Shown: positions 3,353 to 53,337 of the stretch, piece by piece | Layout: the number at the start of each line of letters is the position of its first letter | Position numbering within the stretch: the first letter of the stretch is position 1 | Origin: a virus | Taxonomy: Duplodnaviria > Caudoviricetes | Length of the DNA: 58,942 nt | Direction: 5' to 3' (one strand) | IMG/VR virus record: IMGVR_UViG_3300033143_005711 | Coordinates: 1 to 58,942 of that record | Position numbers and translations under genes: made by a program | Notes under the pieces: model-generated | The model's input: only the letters and a program-made list of their open reading frames with translations | The model's database searches: none | What the model was told of the DNA's origin: nothing

Positions 3353-3610
3353 CTATCTATTAAGCCACCAACTTCTTATTTTATCTCCTAGTGCAAATCC
3401 ACATCCACCAAAACCAATCCAAACCATCAGCCTCCAAAAAGCAAATCCCTCAATTACAGCATTACCTGTCTCAGTTGGATTAATAATAAACCCAACTATT
3501 AGCAACCCAAAATAAAATATTACTAGTGGTATAAAGACATATTTTTTAAATAAACCATAAACAAACGATATTCCAAAAGCTACCAATATTTGTAATAATA
3601 CTTCATTCAT
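3353..3610 (-). CDS. membrane protein (about 3 TM)
   Basis: three hydrophobic segments. Confidence 0.65.
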   Translation of the reverse strand: MNEVLLQILVAFGISFVYGLFKKYVFIPLVIFYFGLLIVGFIINPTETGNAVIEGFAFWRLMVWIGFGGCGFALGDKIRSWWLNR

Positions 3611-3915
3611 TTCAAATCCTCCCCTGTAATATTATGAATATGTTTTAATATTTCAATTATATCCCCTGTATCTCCCCAAGCACCTAAACAACCTATAATT
3701 TCTTGCATATTTTTGTCTTTAGTATAATCTTTATTTTTCCACTTATCTTCAAATATTTTTAGTTCTTTAATCCATTTGATTATTTCTTGTTTTAATTTCC
3801 CAGAATTAACAGTTTTAAATTCAGAAGGACAATCCCCATTAACCATATATGGTGGTCCTTGCATTAATCTTGGAGTTCCCCTAATTTCAATATCTTTTAA
3901 TGTTTTTAATTCCAT
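3607..3915 (-). CDS. hypothetical protein, paralog of 47467-47718
   Basis: shared ELKTLKD start, KQ-x-x-IK core and NI-x-(x)-(E/D)DLK end. Confidence 0.65.
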   Translation of the reverse strand: MELKTLKDIEIRGTPRLMQGPPYMVNGDCPSEFKTVNSGKLKQEIIKWIKELKIFEDKWKNKDYTKDKNMQEIIGCLGAWGDTGDIIEILKHIHNITGEDLK

Positions 3916-3934
3916 GATTTAAATAGAAGAAAAA

Positions 3935-3949
3935 CCCTTTTAAATGTTT
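3935..3949 (-). promoter_or_regulatory. archaeal BRE/TATA promoter, leaderless transcript
   Basis: AAACATTTAAAAGGG about 25 bp upstream of ATG 3915; the same motif recurs genome-wide. Confidence 0.7.
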
Positions 3950-6607: not shown

Positions 6608-7357
6608 CTACCATTTTACTTCTCCTAAAACTTTACATTTTTTAACTCTAATCTTTCCCATTTGACAAGTAATTACATCTTTTAATTGGACTTCACAAGC
6701 AATTAAAGTATCTCCTTTATCCCAATAAAAGGGGGTAGATAAATGAATACCTTTTCCACAAGATTTATTTGATTTATCGTAATCTTTAACTTTAATCTCT
6801 TTTCCATCTTCATAAATAAATTCTTTATCATAACAACTTGAATATTTACCTCTAGATATTTGATTTACTCTTTTATACATTACAAAATTATCATTAGGAA
6901 TTATTCCTATTTGACTTGCTATCTGTTTTTTTATGTTATCTAGCTTTTTATTTATATATCCGGTTAAAATTAAATTTTCTCCATATACCCTAGCATCTCC
7001 ATATACCATAGCATCTCCAGATACCCTAGCATCTCCAGATACCCTAGCATCTCCAGATACCCTAGCATCTCCAGATACCATAGCATCTCCAGATACCCTA
7101 GCATCTCCATATACCATAGCATCTCCAGATACCCTAGCATCTCCATATACCATAGCATCTCCAGATACCATAGCATCTCCATATACCATAGCATCTCCAG
7201 ATACCATAGCATCTCCATTTTGACTTAAATTACTTTCTTTTTCTATCCAACCCCCTAATTCTCCTTTTTTAACACTTCCAAATTTCTCAATACATTCAAT
7301 TTGATAAAGTGTTCTTCCAAATATTTCTTTTTTGTTTTTTGTTAATTTATATTTCAT
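6608..7357 (-). CDS. hexapeptide-repeat (GDAxVx) beta-helix protein
   Basis: GELGGWIEKESNLSQ followed by 13 GDA(M/R)V(S/Y) repeats; C-terminal CGKGIH domain. Confidence 0.8.
   Translation of the reverse strand: MKYKLTKNKKEIFGRTLYQIECIEKFGSVKKGELGGWIEKESNLSQNGDAMVSGDAMVYGDAMVSGDAMVYGDARVSGDAMVYGDARVSGDAMVSGDARVSGDARVSGDARVSGDAMVYGDARVYGENLILTGYINKKLDNIKKQIASQIGIIPNDNFVMYKRVNQISRGKYSSCYDKEFIYEDGKEIKVKDYDKSNKSCGKGIHLSTPFYWDKGDTLIACEVQLKDVITCQMGKIRVKKCKVLGEVKW
6984..7217. repeat. 18-bp tandem repeat x13
   Basis: (g/t)atacc(a/c)tagcatctcca units. Confidence 0.9.
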
Positions 7358-8755: not shown

Positions 8756-9337
8756 TTAAAAATAAAACCTGTAATTTTCTTGGTTCTTTTCCCCTCTTAA
8801 TTTATTTAATACTAATTGGCTACAAATAGAAGCAACTATCAGGTTTCCATTTTGAATAATGTTGTTTTCTAACTCGTAACTTAATTGACAAGACATAGAT
8901 TTTTTATTTTTCAAATCAATAGTTCTTAAAATATCTTCTTTTTTCATTTTGTCTGTTTTAGTAAAGATAGCAATAGCTCTACTTTCAGCTCTTAAATCAA
9001 TAAAATATTTATTTTCTTTGAAACAATAATCTATTATTAGTTTTCTTGCCTTTGCATTATCAACGCAGGAAATTATAAAATTATATTCTTTGAGTTGTTC
9101 CTCGCTGGTTATTGCTTTCTCAATACAATTAAGGCAATACTTACTGCTTACGTCAGTTGTGAAGTTTTGGTATTTTATATTTTTTAACTCTACTTTGTCA
9201 AAATCTGCTAGAGTTATTTCAACTTGACTTAAATCAATCTGTTCATTTAAGATTAATCTGTTAAGTTCTCTTGCTAAATACGAACCAATACCACCACAAC
9301 CAACAACCAATATTTTATTTTCCATTTTATAAGTCAT
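8756..9337 (-). CDS. ThiF/MoeB/E1-like adenylating enzyme (compact, no CxxC Zn sites)
   Basis: ILVVGCGGIGS; DFDKVELKNIKYQ; SCVDNAKAR; candidate catalytic Cys in SMSCQL. Confidence 0.9.
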   Translation of the reverse strand: MTYKMENKILVVGCGGIGSYLARELNRLILNEQIDLSQVEITLADFDKVELKNIKYQNFTTDVSSKYCLNCIEKAITSEEQLKEYNFIISCVDNAKARKLIIDYCFKENKYFIDLRAESRAIAIFTKTDKMKKEDILRTIDLKNKKSMSCQLSYELENNIIQNGNLIVASICSQLVLNKLRGEKNQENYRFYF

Positions 9338-9563
9338 TGTTTCTTTCTTCTTCCCCTTTTGCTAATTTAATTAAGTGTTCTTCAACCAAGCCGTCTAATT
9401 TTTTGTTTATTAGCCCAACTATTGTTTTTCTTTCCTTAAGAGTTTGGAATAATTTTTTTTTATCTATTCTCAATTCTAAACTTCCTTTGTCTATTCCTAC
9501 TTCTATGTTGTTGTTGAAGTTTCCAACTAAACAAATTAGTTTCATTTCTGTTTGTATTTCCAT
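9327..9563 (-). CDS. hypothetical protein in the Ubl-E1 operon
   Basis: abuts the Ubl gene and overlaps the E1 gene. Confidence 0.7.
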   Translation of the reverse strand: MEIQTEMKLICLVGNFNNNIEVGIDKGSLELRIDKKKLFQTLKERKTIVGLINKKLDGLVEEHLIKLAKGEEERNNDL

Positions 9564-9801: not shown

Positions 9802-11691
9802 TTATAAAGTATAGATATTTTCTTTTAATAATGTATCGTTTGCACAAGCATAAAGCCGACTAATTAATAAATCTGTGCTGTTTAGAGTTGAATATTTACC
9901 TTTGTCTATAATACAAATATATTTCATACTTGGATAATTAAAAATTTTAAGTTTTTCTGTTATAAAATACTCTTTTCCAGATTTACCTTTTACAAGATAA
10001 CCTTTATCTTCTATCTCTGAATTTTCCACATCTATTTTTTTAATATTTAGTTTTGTTATTGTTTCCTCTAATAATTGTTTAGCTTTTTTCTTTGCGAGTT
10101 TATAATCTGCTAAACCTTTTTTTAATACAAGTAAAGAAGTATTATAATCAAGTTCAGAGTTTTTTTCTAAACCCTGTGCTATTGTGTGGGTATTTGTAAC
10201 ATTATTAGACCAATTTTCCATAGTAATTATATTTTTTATATTAGAAATTTGAAACTCTTTTTTTCCTAATTTTATAAAATGCCTGTTTTTCTTTCTTATT
10301 AATTCCACATTTGAAAATATTTTGTCTTCCCCATATTGATTTTTATTTAAGTAATATGTTAAACCACTACTTAATTTATTATGTATTTCTATTGAACATT
10401 TACTAACTTCCTTAAGAAATACTAAATAATCTTTTTTCTTATTATAACATAAGGCTTTCTTTAAAACTTCTTCTCTTTCTGCCTTATTTATTCTTATATC
10501 CTCTATATACCACCGATTATTTTCTTCTTCCATTTTTATTTTAAAATCCCCACAGAAAAGAATATTTTGTTTTTCATTATAATTATTGACAAAACTAAAA
10601 ACTACTTCATTAAATATATTGTTAAAATCTTTTTCTTCTTTATCTAAACGCATGACATCAAAATCTTTAAATCCTATTTTTTGTTTTTGATATTCAAAAA
10701 AACCTTTTTTTGTTCTTCTTATTCCATTAAGATTTATTTCGTTATTTTTTTCAAATTCAGAGTTTATTTTTTCATCAAGAGCATTTTCTTTATTTTGTTT
10801 TAATTCTTTCATTTTCTTTCTTAATTTTTCTTTACTACATAAACTTTTAAATTCATCATTTGTTATAAATTTAATCTTTTCTTTTATTTTATTTTTTATG
10901 TTGTTGTCGTCAAAAAATTTAAAATCTTCTTGAGTTATATCATCAAAAATATAAAATTTATTATCGCTATAACTCCCCCAATCAAGATAAAATTTTCTTC
11001 CCTCATCAAGATAATTATATATGCTAAACTCTGGTATAGCCATAATTATCTTATACACATAATTATCTCTACAAAATACAACCCTTAAATTATCTTTTTC
11101 AAATACCTTAATAATTTTGTTATTATCTTCTGTGTTTTCTTTAGGGTCATAATTTTCATTAAAAATGAAATTAATTATTTTTATTGCCGTTGAATAGCTA
11201 TGAGGAGTAGAAAAACAAAACTTATTTTCTTTTGTTTTTAACTCGTTTTTTATTTCCTTTATTATATCTTCTGTTCCATTTATATTAATATCAAATTTTT
11301 TAAATAACTCTTTAGATTTCTTTGTTTTTAATTCTTCACTTAATTTTTCTTTTATTTCGTTTTTTCCAATTAATTTAAGTTTGTTTGAATGATAATAGTT
11401 TCCTTCTTGATTTTCAATTTCGAACTTCAGACCAATATTTTCTTTACTTTCATAAACAACTCTTTCTTTAGAAATTTCGTTAAAGCTTTCATCATAAGTA
11501 ACTTTACCAATTCTTATAAAAAAATCATCTATTCCATACTCCGTATAAGTTTTTTTTGCGAATGTTAAAAATTCATCAAGAAGTTTACTATCTTTTTTAT
11601 TTAATCCTTTAATACTATTTGTTCCAACTATTAACTCTGCTTTTTTTTCTTCAATATTTCTTTCTAATTGTTCTATATTATAGCTTGTCAT
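9802..11691 (-). CDS. 629-aa protein heading the Ubl-E1 operon; C-terminal domain with YICII motif
   Basis: long ORF with its own TATA box; C-term YLVKGKSGKEYFI...YICII...DLLISRLYACAND. Confidence 0.75.
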   Translation of the reverse strand: MTSYNIEQLERNIEEKKAELIVGTNSIKGLNKKDSKLLDEFLTFAKKTYTEYGIDDFFIRIGKVTYDESFNEISKERVVYESKENIGLKFEIENQEGNYYHSNKLKLIGKNEIKEKLSEELKTKKSKELFKKFDININGTEDIIKEIKNELKTKENKFCFSTPHSYSTAIKIINFIFNENYDPKENTEDNNKIIKVFEKDNLRVVFCRDNYVYKIIMAIPEFSIYNYLDEGRKFYLDWGSYSDNKFYIFDDITQEDFKFFDDNNIKNKIKEKIKFITNDEFKSLCSKEKLRKKMKELKQNKENALDEKINSEFEKNNEINLNGIRRTKKGFFEYQKQKIGFKDFDVMRLDKEEKDFNNIFNEVVFSFVNNYNEKQNILFCGDFKIKMEEENNRWYIEDIRINKAEREEVLKKALCYNKKKDYLVFLKEVSKCSIEIHNKLSSGLTYYLNKNQYGEDKIFSNVELIRKKNRHFIKLGKKEFQISNIKNIITMENWSNNVTNTHTIAQGLEKNSELDYNTSLLVLKKGLADYKLAKKKAKQLLEETITKLNIKKIDVENSEIEDKGYLVKGKSGKEYFITEKLKIFNYPSMKYICIIDKGKYSTLNSTDLLISRLYACANDTLLKENIYTL

Positions 11692-12715: not shown

Positions 12716-13360
12716 TTATTTCTCTACCATACAAAACTCTGAATTACAAACTAAACACTTTGCCTGTAACTCATCACTTGCACACCTTATTTTAACACCA
12801 CAATTACATATATACAACCTTAACCGACTTCCTACTTTCTTTTTACCCTTTTGATTTTGAAATATATTAAACACTTCTTTACTTGGCTTAAATTCTTCTA
12901 CTAACTTGTTAAAATCCTCTGTTTCGCTTGTTTGATTATAACCTTTATTTCCTTTTTCTACTAATAACTTAAACTTTTCTGCTTGTTCTTTGAATTTCTT
13001 ATTATGATAACCATTGCTTGTAGTATCCTTTACGCCTTTTATGTGACTTACAAAATGTGCTAACTCGTGAGCCAATACCTCATAAGGATTACTTGTTTTA
13101 AGGTGTAATGTGTTTAAGTTTATATTGTTTAGGTCTTGTTTTGTATTTGTGAATCTATCTTCGCACTTATCACTCATAAAATAACCTATTGTTCTATTAC
13201 TTGCTTTATTTAAAGTTACAACATAATTACTTGGAAGTTTAAGAGAAAATCTAACATTAAGAAAACTTATGAATTTCTCACATTCCCTTATTGCAGGAAT
13301 GAAGCTGTTATTATTCTCTGGAATGGTGTTATTTGCTGTTTTAAGCTGTTCTGGTGTCAT
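12716..13360 (-). CDS. SprT-like zinc metalloprotease with C-terminal Zn ribbon
   Basis: LAHELAH, GYHNKKFK, CNCG...CLVC. Confidence 0.8.
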   Translation of the reverse strand: MTPEQLKTANNTIPENNNSFIPAIRECEKFISFLNVRFSLKLPSNYVVTLNKASNRTIGYFMSDKCEDRFTNTKQDLNNINLNTLHLKTSNPYEVLAHELAHFVSHIKGVKDTTSNGYHNKKFKEQAEKFKLLVEKGNKGYNQTSETEDFNKLVEEFKPSKEVFNIFQNQKGKKKVGSRLRLYICNCGVKIRCASDELQAKCLVCNSEFCMVEK

Positions 13361-15623: not shown

Positions 15624-16985
15624 ATGAAAAAAAGCTACATAATAACTGCAGCACAATCATATGCTTCTCCACATACAAATTTATTAAATGGTCTTAAGAA
15701 ATATGCTGAAAGAAATAATTCTGAATTAATTGTTTTACCAATGATTGGAAATTCTGCAAGACAAGATTGGGATGGGATTAAAGATATGTTTCAAGAATTT
15801 TTAGAATATAATAAAAGAAAATTAAATAGCAACATTAGAATAGGTCAACACCACATAAGACCATATATGATTGACCCAATTACTGGACTAAATAGATTTG
15901 CTCAAAGGGGAACTTCATTAATTGTTGGTAGCCCAAAACAAAGAATGAGGGCCATAGCACATTCAAATCATAAAATACCCAAATTAATTATGTCTACTGG
16001 GGCAGTCACAAGACCAAATTATGCAACAGGCAATGATATTAGTGCTGAAAGAAGAAGATTAGGTGGTATTGCATTAGAAGACCATACTTATGGTGCATTA
16101 GTTGTTGAAGTTATTAATGGAAACAAATATCATTTAAGAAACATAAGAGCAGATTCTAGAGGTAGGTTTATTGACCTTGGTAAGAAATTTGATGGTAAAA
16201 AAAGAGTTGGAAATGCTGATTTAGAAGCATTAGTTTTTGGAGATTGGCATAATGGATATACTGATAAAAAAGTTAGAAAAGCAAATTTTGAAATGATTGA
16301 AGAATATAATCCCAAAAAGGTAGTTTTACATGACTTCTTTGATGGGCATTCTGTTTCACACCACGCAAAAGGGCATCTAATTACTCAATTAATGCTCGAA
16401 GGTTCAGACAAAGGTTTTCTTTCATTAGAGGATGAATTAAAACTGAGTTATAACGAATTAATTGAAATAAATAAAAGAATGAAAAGAAGAGATAAGGAAA
16501 TATATGTTGTAGCTGCTAACCATTTAGAGTTTTTAGATAGATATTTGGATGAAGGCCGATTTATAAAAGACCCTGGTAATGCGAGGTTGGCATTCCATTT
16601 AGCTGCAGCACTAGCAGAAGATAAGAATCCTGTTGAAGTTGGCATAAAAATGATGGGTAATTTACCAAAAAGCATTAAATTTTTAAGAAGAGATGAAGAT
16701 TTAAAAGTTAGAGGTTATCAATTAGGTTCCCATGGTGATAAAGGGCCCAGTGGTGGAAGAGGAAGTATAAAGAGTAGAGAAAATGATTTTGGAAAAAGTA
16801 TAACGGGTCATTCACATAGTGCGGAAATATTAAGAGATACTTATATTGTTGGGACCTCTACACCCCTAACAATTTTTTATAGTAGAGGAACACCAACAAA
16901 ATGGACAAATACAAATGCATTACTTTGGGAAAATGGTATGGTTCAAATGGTACACATAATAAATGGAAAATGGAGAGACAAATGA
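15624..16985 (+). CDS. calcineurin-like metallophosphoesterase with N-terminal extension
   Basis: GDWH, HDFFDG, ANH, HGD, GHSH motifs. Confidence 0.8.
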   Translation: MKKSYIITAAQSYASPHTNLLNGLKKYAERNNSELIVLPMIGNSARQDWDGIKDMFQEFLEYNKRKLNSNIRIGQHHIRPYMIDPITGLNRFAQRGTSLIVGSPKQRMRAIAHSNHKIPKLIMSTGAVTRPNYATGNDISAERRRLGGIALEDHTYGALVVEVINGNKYHLRNIRADSRGRFIDLGKKFDGKKRVGNADLEALVFGDWHNGYTDKKVRKANFEMIEEYNPKKVVLHDFFDGHSVSHHAKGHLITQLMLEGSDKGFLSLEDELKLSYNELIEINKRMKRRDKEIYVVAANHLEFLDRYLDEGRFIKDPGNARLAFHLAAALAEDKNPVEVGIKMMGNLPKSIKFLRRDEDLKVRGYQLGSHGDKGPSGGRGSIKSRENDFGKSITGHSHSAEILRDTYIVGTSTPLTIFYSRGTPTKWTNTNALLWENGMVQMVHIINGKWRDK

Positions 16986-51092: not shown

Positions 51093-51166
51093 TAGCCCTA
51101 CTCGGATTCGAACCGAGGTCTCCAGTGTCAAAGACTGGTATTCTTGTCCAGCTAAACTATAGGGCT
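51093..51166 (-). tRNA. tRNA-Gln(UUG)
   Basis: A1-U72 archaeal type; loop CUUUGAC. Confidence 0.9.
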
Positions 51167-51169
51167 TTA

Positions 51170-51241
51170 TATCTCCAGCAGGAATTGAACCTACATCTCA
51201 AGGGTCGAAGCCTAGTATTCTATCTGTTGAACTATGGAGAT
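51170..51241 (-). tRNA. tRNA-Arg(UCG)
   Basis: loop CUUCGAC; GUUCAAUU T-loop. Confidence 0.85.
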
Positions 51242-51245
51242 TTGA

Positions 51246-51317
51246 TGGTTCATGAAAGAATTGAACTTTCTTCTCCCGAGCTTCAGTCAGGTGTAATACC
51301 CAATATACGAATGAACC
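51246..51317 (-). tRNA. tRNA-Phe(GAA)
   Basis: loop CUGAAGC. Confidence 0.85.
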
Positions 51318-51320
51318 AAA

Positions 51321-51393
51321 TGACCCTAGGGGGATTTGAACCCCCATGTACCGGTTAAAAGCCGGTTACTCTACCAGATTGAGCTATAGAGCC
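51321..51393 (-). tRNA. tRNA-Lys(UUU)
   Basis: ACCGG-CUUUUAA-CCGGU. Confidence 0.9.
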
Positions 51394-51394
51394 T

Positions 51395-51469
51395 TGGTGG
51401 GCCCAGCCGGAATCCAACCGACGTCTAGGGATTAGAAGTCCCTTATTCTATGCCCTGAACTATGGGCCC
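51395..51469 (-). tRNA. tRNA-Arg(UCU), CCA encoded
   Basis: AGGGA-CUUCUAA-UCCCU; atypical T-loop UUGGAUU. Confidence 0.85.
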
Positions 51470-51472
51470 AAA

Positions 51473-51545
51473 CGTATCCGGTTGGATTTGAACCAACGAC
51501 CTTCCGGTTAACAGCCGGATGCTACCACCACTGAGCTACGGACAC
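51473..51545 (-). tRNA. tRNA-Asn(GUU)
   Basis: UCCGG-CUGUUAA-CCGGA; G73. Confidence 0.9.
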
Positions 51546-51548
51546 ATA

Positions 51549-51619
51549 AGACTTTGCCGTGAATCGAACACGGGTCAAAAGGGTTGCAATCTTTTGGGAT
51601 ACCACTACCTCACAAAGTC
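51549..51619 (-). tRNA. tRNA-Cys(GCA)
   Basis: loop UUGCAAC; U73. Confidence 0.9.
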
Positions 51620-51621
51620 AA

Positions 51622-51705
51622 TGGGAGTAGGGGGAATCGAACCCACCACAGCACACTAAGGCTCCAATCTTAAGTCGGATGTATTTTCCAATTTACTATA
51701 CTCCC
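51622..51705 (-). tRNA. tRNA-Leu(UAA)
   Basis: loop CUUAAGA; long variable arm. Confidence 0.9.
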
Positions 51706-51708
51706 TTA

Positions 51709-51790
51709 TGGGCGAACTTGGATTCGAACCAAGACAGACACTAAGCCACGAGTTCTAAGCCCGTTGCGTTTTCCAATTCGCTATACGCCC
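51709..51790 (-). tRNA. tRNA-Leu(UAG)
   Basis: loop CUUAGAA; long variable arm. Confidence 0.9.
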
Positions 51791-51791
51791 T

Positions 51792-51865
51792 TGGTCTCCC
51801 TTGTCCGAGTTGCACGAACCTCCTACGGTTTACAGCCGTTTGTCGCACTCCGCGACTTAAGAGAG
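51792..51865 (-). tRNA. tRNA-Tyr(GUA), archaeal type, CCA encoded
   Basis: C1-G72, short variable loop, loop CUGUAAA. Confidence 0.8.
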
Positions 51866-51868
51866 TTA

Positions 51869-51941
51869 TGACCCCACCCAGATTTGAACTGGGATGTTCT
51901 GGTTAAGAGCCAGATACTCTGCCAAGTTGAGCTATGGAGCC
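51869..51941 (-). tRNA. tRNA-Lys(CUU)
   Basis: UCUGG-CUCUUAA-CCAGA. Confidence 0.9.
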
Positions 51942-51943
51942 AA

Positions 51944-52014
51944 TGAGAGAACTAGGATTCGCACCTAGACCTAATGGGTTGGAGCCATTTATGCTGCTAT
52001 TACACCAAACTCTC
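51944..52014 (-). tRNA. tRNA-Trp(CCA), intronless
   Basis: AAUGG-CUCCAAC-CCAUU; two U-U mismatches in the acceptor stem. Confidence 0.8.
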
Positions 52015-52017
52015 AAA

Positions 52018-52090
52018 TTGGTTCGAGGGGATTTTAACCCCTGGTCTCCCGCATATAAGACGGGTGCATTAAACACTATGCTACGAACCA
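52018..52090 (-). tRNA. tRNA-Ile(UAU)
   Basis: CCCGU-CUUAUAU-GCGGG. Confidence 0.85.
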
Positions 52091-52091
52091 C

Positions 52092-52165
52092 TGGTAGGCC
52101 CAGAGAGAATCGAACTCCCGTTGCTGGCATATCAGGCCAGTAGTCTACCATTAACTTATGAGCCT
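52092..52165 (-). tRNA. tRNA-Ile(GAU), CCA encoded
   Basis: CUGGC-CUGAUAU-GCCAG. Confidence 0.9.
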
Positions 52166-52168
52166 TTA

Positions 52169-52243
52169 CGCCCCCTACGGGATTTGAACCCGTGTCTTCA
52201 GGTTGAAAACCTGACATACTTGGCCGGACTATACGAAGGGGGC
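52169..52243 (-). tRNA. tRNA-Glu(UUC)
   Basis: UCAGG-UUUUCAA-CCUGA. Confidence 0.9.
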
Positions 52244-52247
52244 AAAG

Positions 52248-52320
52248 GATGAATGGAGAGACTTGAACTCTCTTCTCCTGGACCACAGCCAGGCACATTA
52301 CCACATATGCTACACCCATC
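52248..52320 (-). tRNA. tRNA-His(GUG) with encoded G-1:C73
   Basis: CCUGG-CUGUGGU-CCAGG. Confidence 0.9.
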
Positions 52321-52362
52321 ATTAAGTACATCCTCCCTAGAATCTTATCTAGGAAATCATCA

Positions 52363-52445
52363 CGCCGACAGCTGGAGTCGAACCAACTCACCTAAAGGTG
52401 ACCTCAGCTTAGCAAGCTGGTGCATTACCGTTCTGCCATATCGGC
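52363..52445 (-). tRNA. tRNA-Ser(GCU)
   Basis: loop UUGCUAA; long variable arm; G73. Confidence 0.9.
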
Positions 52446-52448
52446 TTA

Positions 52449-52528
52449 CGCCGTCGAGAGGAATCGAACCTCCATACACTAAGGAAATTGGGTTCAAGCC
52501 AATCGGGCTACCACTGCCCAACGACGGC
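52449..52528 (-). tRNA. tRNA-Ser(UGA)
   Basis: AUUGG-CUUGAAC-CCAAU; extended variable region; G73. Confidence 0.85.
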
Positions 52529-52530
52529 AA

Positions 52531-52601
52531 CGCCCAGTGCGGGAATCGGACCCGCGCTTGATGGCTGACAACCATCTGTACTACCATTATACTAACTGGG
52601 C
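52531..52601 (-). tRNA. tRNA-Asp(GUC)
   Basis: GAUGG-UUGUCAG-CCAUC; G73. Confidence 0.85.
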
Positions 52602-52603
52602 AA

Positions 52604-52674
52604 TGGATGAACCTGGAATCGAACCAGGACCTTCTCGATGTAAGCGAGATATTCTACCACTAGACTATACATCC
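52604..52674 (-). tRNA. tRNA-Val(UAC)
   Basis: UCUCG-CUUACAU-CGAGA. Confidence 0.9.
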
Positions 52675-52677
52675 AAA

Positions 52678-52748
52678 TGGACCAACCGAGAATCGAACTC
52701 AGACCTCTTCGTTGCAAACGAAGTATACTACCATTGTACTATTAGCCC
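52678..52748 (-). tRNA. tRNA-Ala(UGC)
   Basis: G3:U70; loop UUUGCAA. Confidence 0.9.
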
Positions 52749-52749
52749 C

Positions 52750-52826
52750 TGGTGGGGTATCTTGGATTTGAACCAAGATTATACGGTTCCAAACCGCAGG
52801 TGTTACCAACTTATCACTAATACCCC
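52750..52826 (-). tRNA. tRNA-Pro(UGG), CCA encoded
   Basis: GGGG start (archaeal type); loop UUUGGAA. Confidence 0.9.
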
Positions 52827-52829
52827 ATA

Positions 52830-52900
52830 TGCGCTAACTCGTACTTAAACCGAGACAAATAGTTTGGAAGACTATTATGCTATCATTACATCATTAACGC
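52830..52900 (-). tRNA. tRNA-Gly(UCC)
   Basis: GCG/CGC acceptor, A73; loop CUUCCAA; degenerate T-arm. Confidence 0.8.
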
Positions 52901-53220
52901 GTTTTATTATGTTCCTTTCGATGGCAATTTGAGCAAAGCACAACACATTTTGAAATCTCTTCTAGGATTTTCTTTATTGAGTACCCATGCGTGGCCATTA
53001 TAGAAATCTCGTTTTCCTTATTTGATTCTTTATGGTGAAACTCTAAACAAGCAGGATGTTTTTCAGGGCATCTATCACATTTAAGTTTCTTTTTGTAATT
53101 AAAATACCAAGCTTTTATCCTTGCCCTATGTTCTATTGTTCGTCTCCTTTCAGAATCCTTATTTTTTTGATACCATTTCCTTCTAAACTCTCTCCGTTTT
53201 TCTACATCTTTATATGGCAT
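52894..53220 (-). CDS. HNH endonuclease in the tRNA array (start refined to MPYKD)
   Basis: CDRC...LEFHH...KCVVLCSNCH; own TATA at about 53241-53254. Confidence 0.85.
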   Translation of the reverse strand: MPYKDVEKRREFRRKWYQKNKDSERRRTIEHRARIKAWYFNYKKKLKCDRCPEKHPACLEFHHKESNKENEISIMATHGYSIKKILEEISKCVVLCSNCHRKEHNKTR

Positions 53221-53266
53221 GTTTCTATTAAGGATACATACTTTAAAAAGGTTTGTAAACCACATA

Positions 53267-53337
53267 TAGCAGTATCCTGAATCGAACAGGAATTTTGAGA
53301 GCATGAGTCTCATAGGTTACCTTTACCTCATACTGCT
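53267..53337 (-). tRNA. tRNA-Met(CAU), A1-U72
   Basis: UGAGA-CUCAUGC-UCUCA; initiator or elongator identity unclear. Confidence 0.8.

Follow-up and report, generated by a model that had tools for sequence, protein, structure and literature searches.

The stretch of DNA analysed here (the window, 58,942 bp) is a complete tailed-phage genome with direct terminal repeats, and on its minus strand it carries the gene of an uncharacterised protein of 629 amino acids, given the working name BIG, with the genes of a ubiquitin-like protein of 71 amino acids (Ubl) and a ThiF-type enzyme of 193 amino acids (E1) downstream of it. The favoured reading of this set is a phage-owned ubiquitin-like conjugation cassette in which a large protein bears an E2-like domain, so far unrecognised, that is related to DUF7737. 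With about even confidence, we regard the last ~115 residues of BIG as a divergent, minimal E2-like carrier (UBC/UEV/RWD-shaped) that depends on one cysteine, C593, and is joined to a large uncharacterised module. The domain is probably the missing carrier step of the cassette, since it is loosely E2-shaped, has a cysteine that never changes and is always found with Ubl and E1.

Positions 9802-10050 of the window, to which the initial annotation had drawn attention, encode residues 548-629 of BIG and the stop codon. The strings quoted in that annotation are present, and the Lys/Glu-rich region and the compact alpha/beta unit that it described are both real. AlphaFold2 modelled full-length BIG from a 132-row alignment with a predicted local distance difference test (pLDDT) score of 89.5 and a predicted template modelling score of 0.79; residues 499-629 alone reached a pLDDT of 93, and the domain block lies between 81 and 98 up to residue 620. 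In the model, a long Lys/Glu-rich helix (residues 516-547, 31% Lys plus Glu) precedes a beta-meander of five strands (551-556, 561-568, 574-578, 583-586 and 590-592), which is followed by a helix at residues 605-617. A further predicted helix of this kind (278-316) is 44% Lys plus Glu, against 27% for BIG as a whole.

BIG matched no family in Pfam, NCBIfam, PHROG or PADLOC. When 1.84 billion representatives (clusters at 50% identity) were scanned in full, the BIG family comprised 321 of them at E ≤ 1e-3, of which 203 remain at 1e-10 and 36 at 1e-30. Among the matches listed, nearly all alignments reach the last residues of BIG, and the C-terminal domain is the best-conserved part of the family; because it holds that place in a family of 321 representatives, the feature lies far beyond chance. 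A word-index search showed no short proteins homologous to the domain alone, and scans of IMG/VR and GTDB with an alignment of close homologs (A1) gave no matches. In BFVD, only three unnamed viral proteins of 416-452 amino acids were matched (E ~1e-8), and these are probably shorter members of the BIG family. The protein has a second strongly conserved patch at residues ~391-458 (window 10317-10518), with R400, N402, E405, C415, S433, H437, G443 and R466 near-invariant; it showed no fold or family match except a weak one to the Pfam BsuBI/PstI restriction endonuclease domain (E 0.002, residues 357-442).

Conservation of the cysteine was followed in a family alignment of 151 sequences (150 of the 321 representatives plus one more), in which 149 rows have a residue at the C593 column. 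Cysteine is present in 148 of these, and the lone exception is a 410-residue fragment whose match ends at BIG residue 582. C593 is likewise invariant in the 132 near-full-length rows of alignment A2, which are 18-48% identical to BIG, in the 138 C-terminal rows of A3 and in the 23 rows of A7, so that the test for an invariant cysteine proposed in the initial annotation came out positive. Only three columns of A2 are invariant (Y575, C593 and D619); G564, Y565, G569, R612, A615, L616, N618, T628 and L629 are each conserved in at least 90% of rows. BIG has eight cysteines and C593 alone is invariant. The second cysteine of the domain (C616, in the string YACAND) can be set aside, the column being Leu in 143 of the 149 rows and Cys in four. 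A zinc site composed of C415, C432, H437 and C593 was considered and rejected: each of the first three has been lost on its own and independently, in different sequences that keep C593, and this cysteine is therefore not tied to them in an obligatory metal site.

E2 enzymes of the UBC type have an N-terminal helix, an antiparallel meander of four strands and a crossing helix, and their catalytic cysteine lies in the loop between the last strand of the meander and the crossing helix. By the order of secondary structure in the AlphaFold2 model, C593 would occupy the same topological place: it stands directly after the last strand (590-592), at the start of a loop of lower confidence that leads to helix 605-617. 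A different role for this residue would be a structural one, in which BIG is a substrate or scaffold, its C-terminal domain is a non-catalytic UEV/RWD-type module that docks Ubl or E1, C593 belongs to the structural core and E1 conjugates Ubl straight to lysine. Conjugation from E1 to lysine without an E2 occurs in SAMP/TtuB-type systems, and UEV and RWD domains, to our knowledge, lack the cysteine. We consider this arrangement unlikely: C593 is the most conserved residue in a family that has otherwise diverged to ~20% identity, whereas, were the cysteine purely structural, Ser, Ala or Val should replace it in at least a few of the 149 rows.

The gene neighbourhood of BIG was compared in 34 related loci (L001-L034), found by pattern scans and mostly from uncultivated phages. 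They comprise two metagenome contigs, one contig binned in an archaeal metagenome-assembled genome (MAG) and 31 viral contigs of IMG/VR, all 31 found in one pattern scan; 11 are sequence duplicates, leaving 23 distinct loci. Gene content was established by iterated profile searches over all open reading frames (ORFs). In 34/34 loci, BIG, Ubl directly downstream of it and E1 further downstream are encoded on the same strand. The initial annotation had named homologs that occur mostly without E1 and Ubl as the finding that would speak against its proposal; instead, every locus has both. A JAB/MPN+ metallopeptidase gene lies between Ubl and E1 in all 34 loci, and one of these was confirmed as Prok-JAB (1.5e-11). 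A gene of ~137 amino acids lies directly upstream of BIG in 28/34 loci (positions 7560-7988 of L004 and equivalents); it is absent from the window and L001-L003, is missing from six loci in all, has no invariant Cys and matched nothing in Pfam, PHROG or PADLOC. Besides BIG, no universally conserved cassette gene could supply an E2. The carrier path is favoured because BIG is the only universally linked protein for the place of the E2 and has one invariant cysteine in an E2-like setting.

The partner proteins are consistent with a working pathway. The terminal Gly-Gly of Ubl is invariant (alignment A5), and the gene stops right after it in 18 of 24 distinct cassettes, the window included, the other six having 1-4 extra residues. 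The E1s retain the GxGGIGS nucleotide-binding motif along with several invariant columns of Asp or Arg. They also share an S-C-Q motif whose cysteine (C150 of the window E1) is invariant in 23/23 aligned sequences (A6) and is a candidate for the catalytic thioester cysteine; by its sequence, the partner E1 looks active. Profile searches against the PDB matched it to a ThiF-type protein (9egc), MccB, a subunit of the NEDD8 E1, Cap2 and UBA5 (1.4e-4).

On the favoured reading, E1 would adenylate the free Gly-Gly end of Ubl, which would then be taken onto the invariant Cys150 of E1 as a thioester and passed to C593 of BIG by trans-thioesterification. The acceptor of Ubl might then be a lysine of BIG itself, or one of a host or phage protein bound to the large N-terminal and middle region of BIG, an arrangement that would combine E2 and E3 in one protein. 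The JAB metallopeptidase would trim or remove the tag in relatives, and in the window phage JAB would have been lost and Ubl made already mature. With a ready Gly-Gly end and no JAB, this phage would be unable to reverse the tagging with its own genes. The initial annotation had seen the cysteine as a natural acceptor in trans-thioesterification; the invariance of C593 and the linkage to Ubl and E1 agree with this, and BIG may be an E2, an E2/E3 hybrid or the substrate.

The E1 and the surroundings of the cassette also bear on another pathway, in which E1 makes a thiocarboxylate of the Gly-Gly end of Ubl in the manner of ThiS, MoaD or CysO, C593 is a persulfide or acyl carrier that thiolates a nucleotide, tRNA or DNA precursor, and JAB performs a Mec+-like trimming. 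E1 is a minimal enzyme of the ThiF/MoeB type, with ThiF and MoeB models among its matches. In the viral loci the genes that flank the cassette are those of ribonucleotide reductase, dUTPase and RecU at one end and those of a sigma-70-type factor, DNA polymerase A and a kinase for dNMP (deoxynucleoside monophosphate) at the other; the cassette thus sits in a replication/early-gene module and not in the virion module, and, the sigma factor apart, this is company that would suit a sulfur relay. Triads of Ubl, JAB and E1 in sulfur assimilation are described in the part of Iyer et al. (2006) available to us. Such a relay is nevertheless quite improbable: neither the cassette proteins nor the conserved neighbours that were scanned yielded a rhodanese, a cysteine desulfurase, a PP-loop or any other domain that handles sulfur, and the fold searches gave BIG no recognisable enzyme fold for this chemistry. 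Moreover, JAB is kept in 23/23 distinct related loci though Ubl already ends in Gly-Gly in 17 of them, and deconjugation therefore fits at least as well as trimming.

The window itself has no JAB: in its complete genome the Pfam model gave no candidate, and the best hit of an unfiltered cassette-specific JAB profile had E = 1. That BIG is kept here could be explained if the domain were a small cysteine peptidase or deconjugase, with C593 as its nucleophile, for processing or removing Ubl, and the invariant cysteine does have invariant or near-invariant polar partners (D619, N618, R612 and D596). Such an activity is, in our judgement, very improbable, as the domain has no conserved His, the fold-search rows on residues 521-629 include no papain-like or other peptidase fold, JAB already fills the role in 34/34 related loci and the Ubl of the window needs no processing.

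The E2 identity was further examined by comparing folds and profiles. A second structural aligner, VIA, which is independent of Foldseek, was run with the full model against 48,161 chains; 23 of the 50 rows listed (Z 3.5-4.9) fall on residues 521-629, and among these are one chain of a BubCD-BubB-BubA complex, seven RWD or kinetochore RWD-type chains, two Mediator subunits and one protein of unknown function. A structure row from the Atlas, for a cluster with Prok-E2_B in 63% of its members, had a template modelling (TM) score of 0.44, obtained from a poor Atlas model. Taken together, the models weakly suggest an E2/UEV/RWD-like topology for the domain. Complex prediction with two copies of E1, Ubl and BIG 512-629 gave a median of 0.37, the control with E1 replaced giving 0.69, a result that counts neither for nor against binding.

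Several results weigh against a carrier of the E2 type. The Foldseek comparison with E2-type folds proposed in the initial annotation found nothing: neither the full nor the domain model had a match in the PDB at E ≤ 1e-3. With the isolated domain model, the top 50 VIA rows were only matches to the long first helix, with no E2 among them, and folds other than E2 (such as frataxin, AvaII and Mediator subunits) score about equal to the E2-type ones. Sequence-profile searches of the PDB with BIG and with its C-terminus returned noise only. The Pfam models UQ_con and Prok-E2_A to E matched neither the window protein (E ≤ 1) nor 57 family members (E ≤ 1e-3) nor 23 C-terminal domains (E ≤ 10), and hhalign against a small plasmid-derived alignment of PRTRC Prok-E2_D gave a probability of 0.1-0.3%. 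The Ubl matched no Prok_Ub model in Pfam, and its PDB profile search gave only noise, with no match that would point to a beta-grasp fold. Canonical E2s have a His-Pro-Asn motif ~8-10 residues before the cysteine. This motif is absent from the BIG family, which has no conserved His or Asn there; at positions -7 and -6 from C593, Tyr586 is found in 100/148 and Pro587 in 97/149 rows. Several prokaryotic E2-like families likewise lack the His, according to the available portion of Iyer et al. (2006).

A sequence relationship of the domain was found elsewhere. The initial annotation had pointed out that the unit resembles the C-terminal module found in DUF4132-associated proteins, and DUF7737 (PF24879), whose own function is unknown, is the C-terminal domain of bacterial DUF4132 proteins. 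When 23 C-terminal domains of BIG relatives were scanned alone, DUF7737 was the family matched by most members: six of the 23 gave matches (E 3.1e-4 to 0.014), all of them below threshold, with the best at 21.1 bits against a cut-off of 27. All six are collinear, cover profile positions 5-66 of 103 and span the meander and the Cys motif. Through these collinear sub-threshold matches the resemblance has some support, and with it a relationship between the BIG C-terminal domain and DUF7737; the domain of the window protein itself, and the rest of the window genome, gave no match to DUF7737. A structure row for a DUF4132/DUF7737 cluster in the Atlas had a TM score of 0.59 over 101 residues, again from a poor Atlas model. 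An hhalign comparison with E. coli YehI gave a probability of 0.15%, which is uninformative because YehI has DUF4132 only and no DUF7737. The DUF4132 domain is absent from the window protein and from 57 family members (Pfam), and BIG thus differs from the DUF4132-DUF7737 architecture. No DUF7737 proteins were found in 301 Thermoplasmatota genomes, nor in the MAG that holds the archaeal-binned contig. DUF4132 is scarcely mentioned in the literature searched.

If C593 does carry the tag, the domain would represent a new E2-like fold class, DUF7737 would gain a function and a foothold on DUF4132 proteins would be obtained. A wider proposal, which we put forward tentatively and with more doubt than confidence, is that DUF7737-type domains are an unrecognised class of Ubl carrier (E2) enzymes and that many tailed-phage lineages carry in their replication module a complete tagging machine that comprises a minimal E1, a Ubl ending in Gly-Gly, JAB and an E2 joined to a large substrate-selecting body and with which host or phage proteins are tagged in infection. 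Tagging of this kind might disarm host defences or control replication and transcription factors.

The features of the cassette in the window are collected in Table 1. The minus-strand order is BIG, Ubl, a 78-residue ORF and E1, four closely packed genes, with an overlap of 11 nucleotides between the E1 gene and the 78-residue ORF. No terminator-like site was found on the minus strand of the cassette, and we infer from the sequence that the genes are probably co-transcribed. The 78-residue ORF matched no family in Pfam, NCBIfam, PHROG or PADLOC; its homologs occur only in the two closest loci (L001 and L002), where they follow JAB, and its single Cys is kept in neither.

Table 1 Positions of BIG, its C-terminal domain and the linked cassette genes in the window
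Feature	Positions	Strand	Basis
BIG, 629 amino acids, uncharacterised phage family	11691..9802	minus	ORF
BIG C-terminal domain, residues 516-629: predicted long helix, five-strand meander, Cys loop, helix	9805..10146	minus	AlphaFold2 secondary structure
Codon of C593 (TGT), invariant Cys, proposed thioester acceptor	9913..9915	minus	Alignment
Codon of C616, second Cys of the domain, not conserved	9844..9846	minus	Alignment
Shine-Dalgarno sequence AAGGAGG before the Ubl gene, within the 20-nucleotide gap after the BIG stop codon	9799..9793	minus	Sequence
Ubl, 71 amino acids, ends LLGG immediately before the stop codon	9781..9566	minus	ORF
78-residue ORF at the position where the JAB gene lies in other loci	9563..9327	minus	ORF
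E1, 193 amino acids, minimal ThiF/E1-like adenylating enzyme	9337..8756	minus	Pfam ThiF 2e-17
Codon of E1 C150, S-C-Q motif, candidate E1 thioester Cys	8888..8890	minus	Alignment A6

Some variation was observed among the related loci. An extra gene of 226-273 amino acids lies between Ubl and JAB in L012, L013, L019, L020 and L021, and the copy in L013 has no Pfam or PHROG match. In L003, the contig binned in a Methanomassiliicoccaceae MAG, the ORFs after the cassette group with the phage genes for the sigma-70-type factor and DNA polymerase A, and the contig probably comes from a phage and was binned together with an archaeon. The JAB of this contig is divided between two ORFs (3515-3661 and 3689-3940).

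The window genome has a G+C content of ~30% and contains terminase, portal and major head genes as well as 22 tRNA genes. The latter have 22 different anticodons and lie almost head to tail on the minus strand (51093-53337). Two genes upstream of BIG, an SprT-like metalloprotease with a Cys-rich C-terminal end is encoded (12716-13360, minus; Pfam 1.3e-6, phrog_6361 9e-18). The plus-strand gene block begins with a 453-residue homolog of a phage 'DNA transfer protein' with a metallophosphoesterase core (15624-16985, plus; phrog_1745, 1.2e-92). A protein of 249 amino acids (6608-7357, minus), matched by PHROGs of unknown function (phrog_5070, 1.6e-48), contains a long series of almost perfect hexapeptide repeats (G-D-A-M/R-V-S/Y), and the repeat makes spurious ORFs in other frames.

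Searches with tblastn of BIG from the window and from two distant relatives, L004 and L009, against 50,697 deposited phage records gave no match, and E1 gave three weak ones in the deposited phage records. A phage-borne cassette of Ubl, E1, E2 and JAB was not described in the literature searched, a search that did not extend to the supplementary operon tables on Bil and Bub, which might list some. The nearest case in that literature, as far as its available text goes, is that of E1 homologs in Asgard viruses. The cassette is common in uncultivated phages, as judged from 321 family clusters and 31 IMG/VR loci.

Among known systems, comparison with the PRTRC system (ParB-related, ThiF-related; class 6d in the available part of Iyer et al. 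2006) is suggested by the small E1, whose nearest named kin is PRTRC ThiF (plasmid tblastn, 27-31% identity). PRTRC_ThiF is also its best NCBIfam model (TIGR03736, 1e-10), with 41.4 bits against a cut-off of 144.75. The layout is parallel in that a large protein is followed by Ubl, then by E2 and further PRTRC genes and then by ThiF. However, the Ubl of the cassette is not matched by Prok_Ub, the PRTRC E2 is a separate Prok-E2_D protein that is unrelated by profile, and other PRTRC parts are missing. BIG was also compared with the PRTRC ParB-family protein and this identity was rejected (hhalign probability 0.2%). In CBASS type II, Cap2 is an E2-E1 fusion and Cap3 a JAB protein, whereas the present cassette has no CD-NTase, its Ubl is separate, its E2-like part is not fused to E1 and BIG has no PADLOC match.

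The eukaryotic UFM1 cascade offers a parallel in shape. Its E1, UBA5, which we take to be a minimal enzyme with no separate catalytic-cysteine domain, is in this respect like the E1 of the cassette, and UFC1 is presumably a minimal E2 that has an additional helix at its N-terminus but neither the HPN motif nor C-terminal helices, the shape seen in the BIG domain model. BIG differs from UFC1 in having no detectable sequence relation to it, and in the cassette JAB stands in place of the cysteine protease.

The best working model is Bil (bacterial ISG15-like), because conjugation has been demonstrated there. In the parts of the reports available, gene content like that of Bil (Ubl, E2, JAB and E1; PMC11601603), Bub and CBASS Cap2 (PMC11601603; PMC11601596) performs conjugation. 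Bil consists of BilA (Ubl), BilB (E2), BilC (JAB) and BilD (E1) according to the same partial source (PMC11601603), and it shares with the cassette one compact co-directional set of genes, a Gly-ended Ubl, a Cys-bearing protein in the E2 position, JAB and E1. If the BIG C-terminus is counted as the E2, 34/34 relatives have this content. The likeness is judged by gene content, not by sequence, and there are clear differences: the cassette is carried by phages and not in a host defence island, its E2-like part is formed by the C-terminal ~115 residues of a protein of 600-800 amino acids with no E2-family match, its E1 has only ~200 amino acids and the window phage has no JAB. With three genes, no JAB and a Ubl made mature, this phage is a handy minimal case for the testable question of what a phage tags and why. 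Ubl conjugation in bacteria (CBASS Cap2, Bil and Bub) has so far been known as a weapon of the host against phages, whereas here the cassette belongs to the phage.

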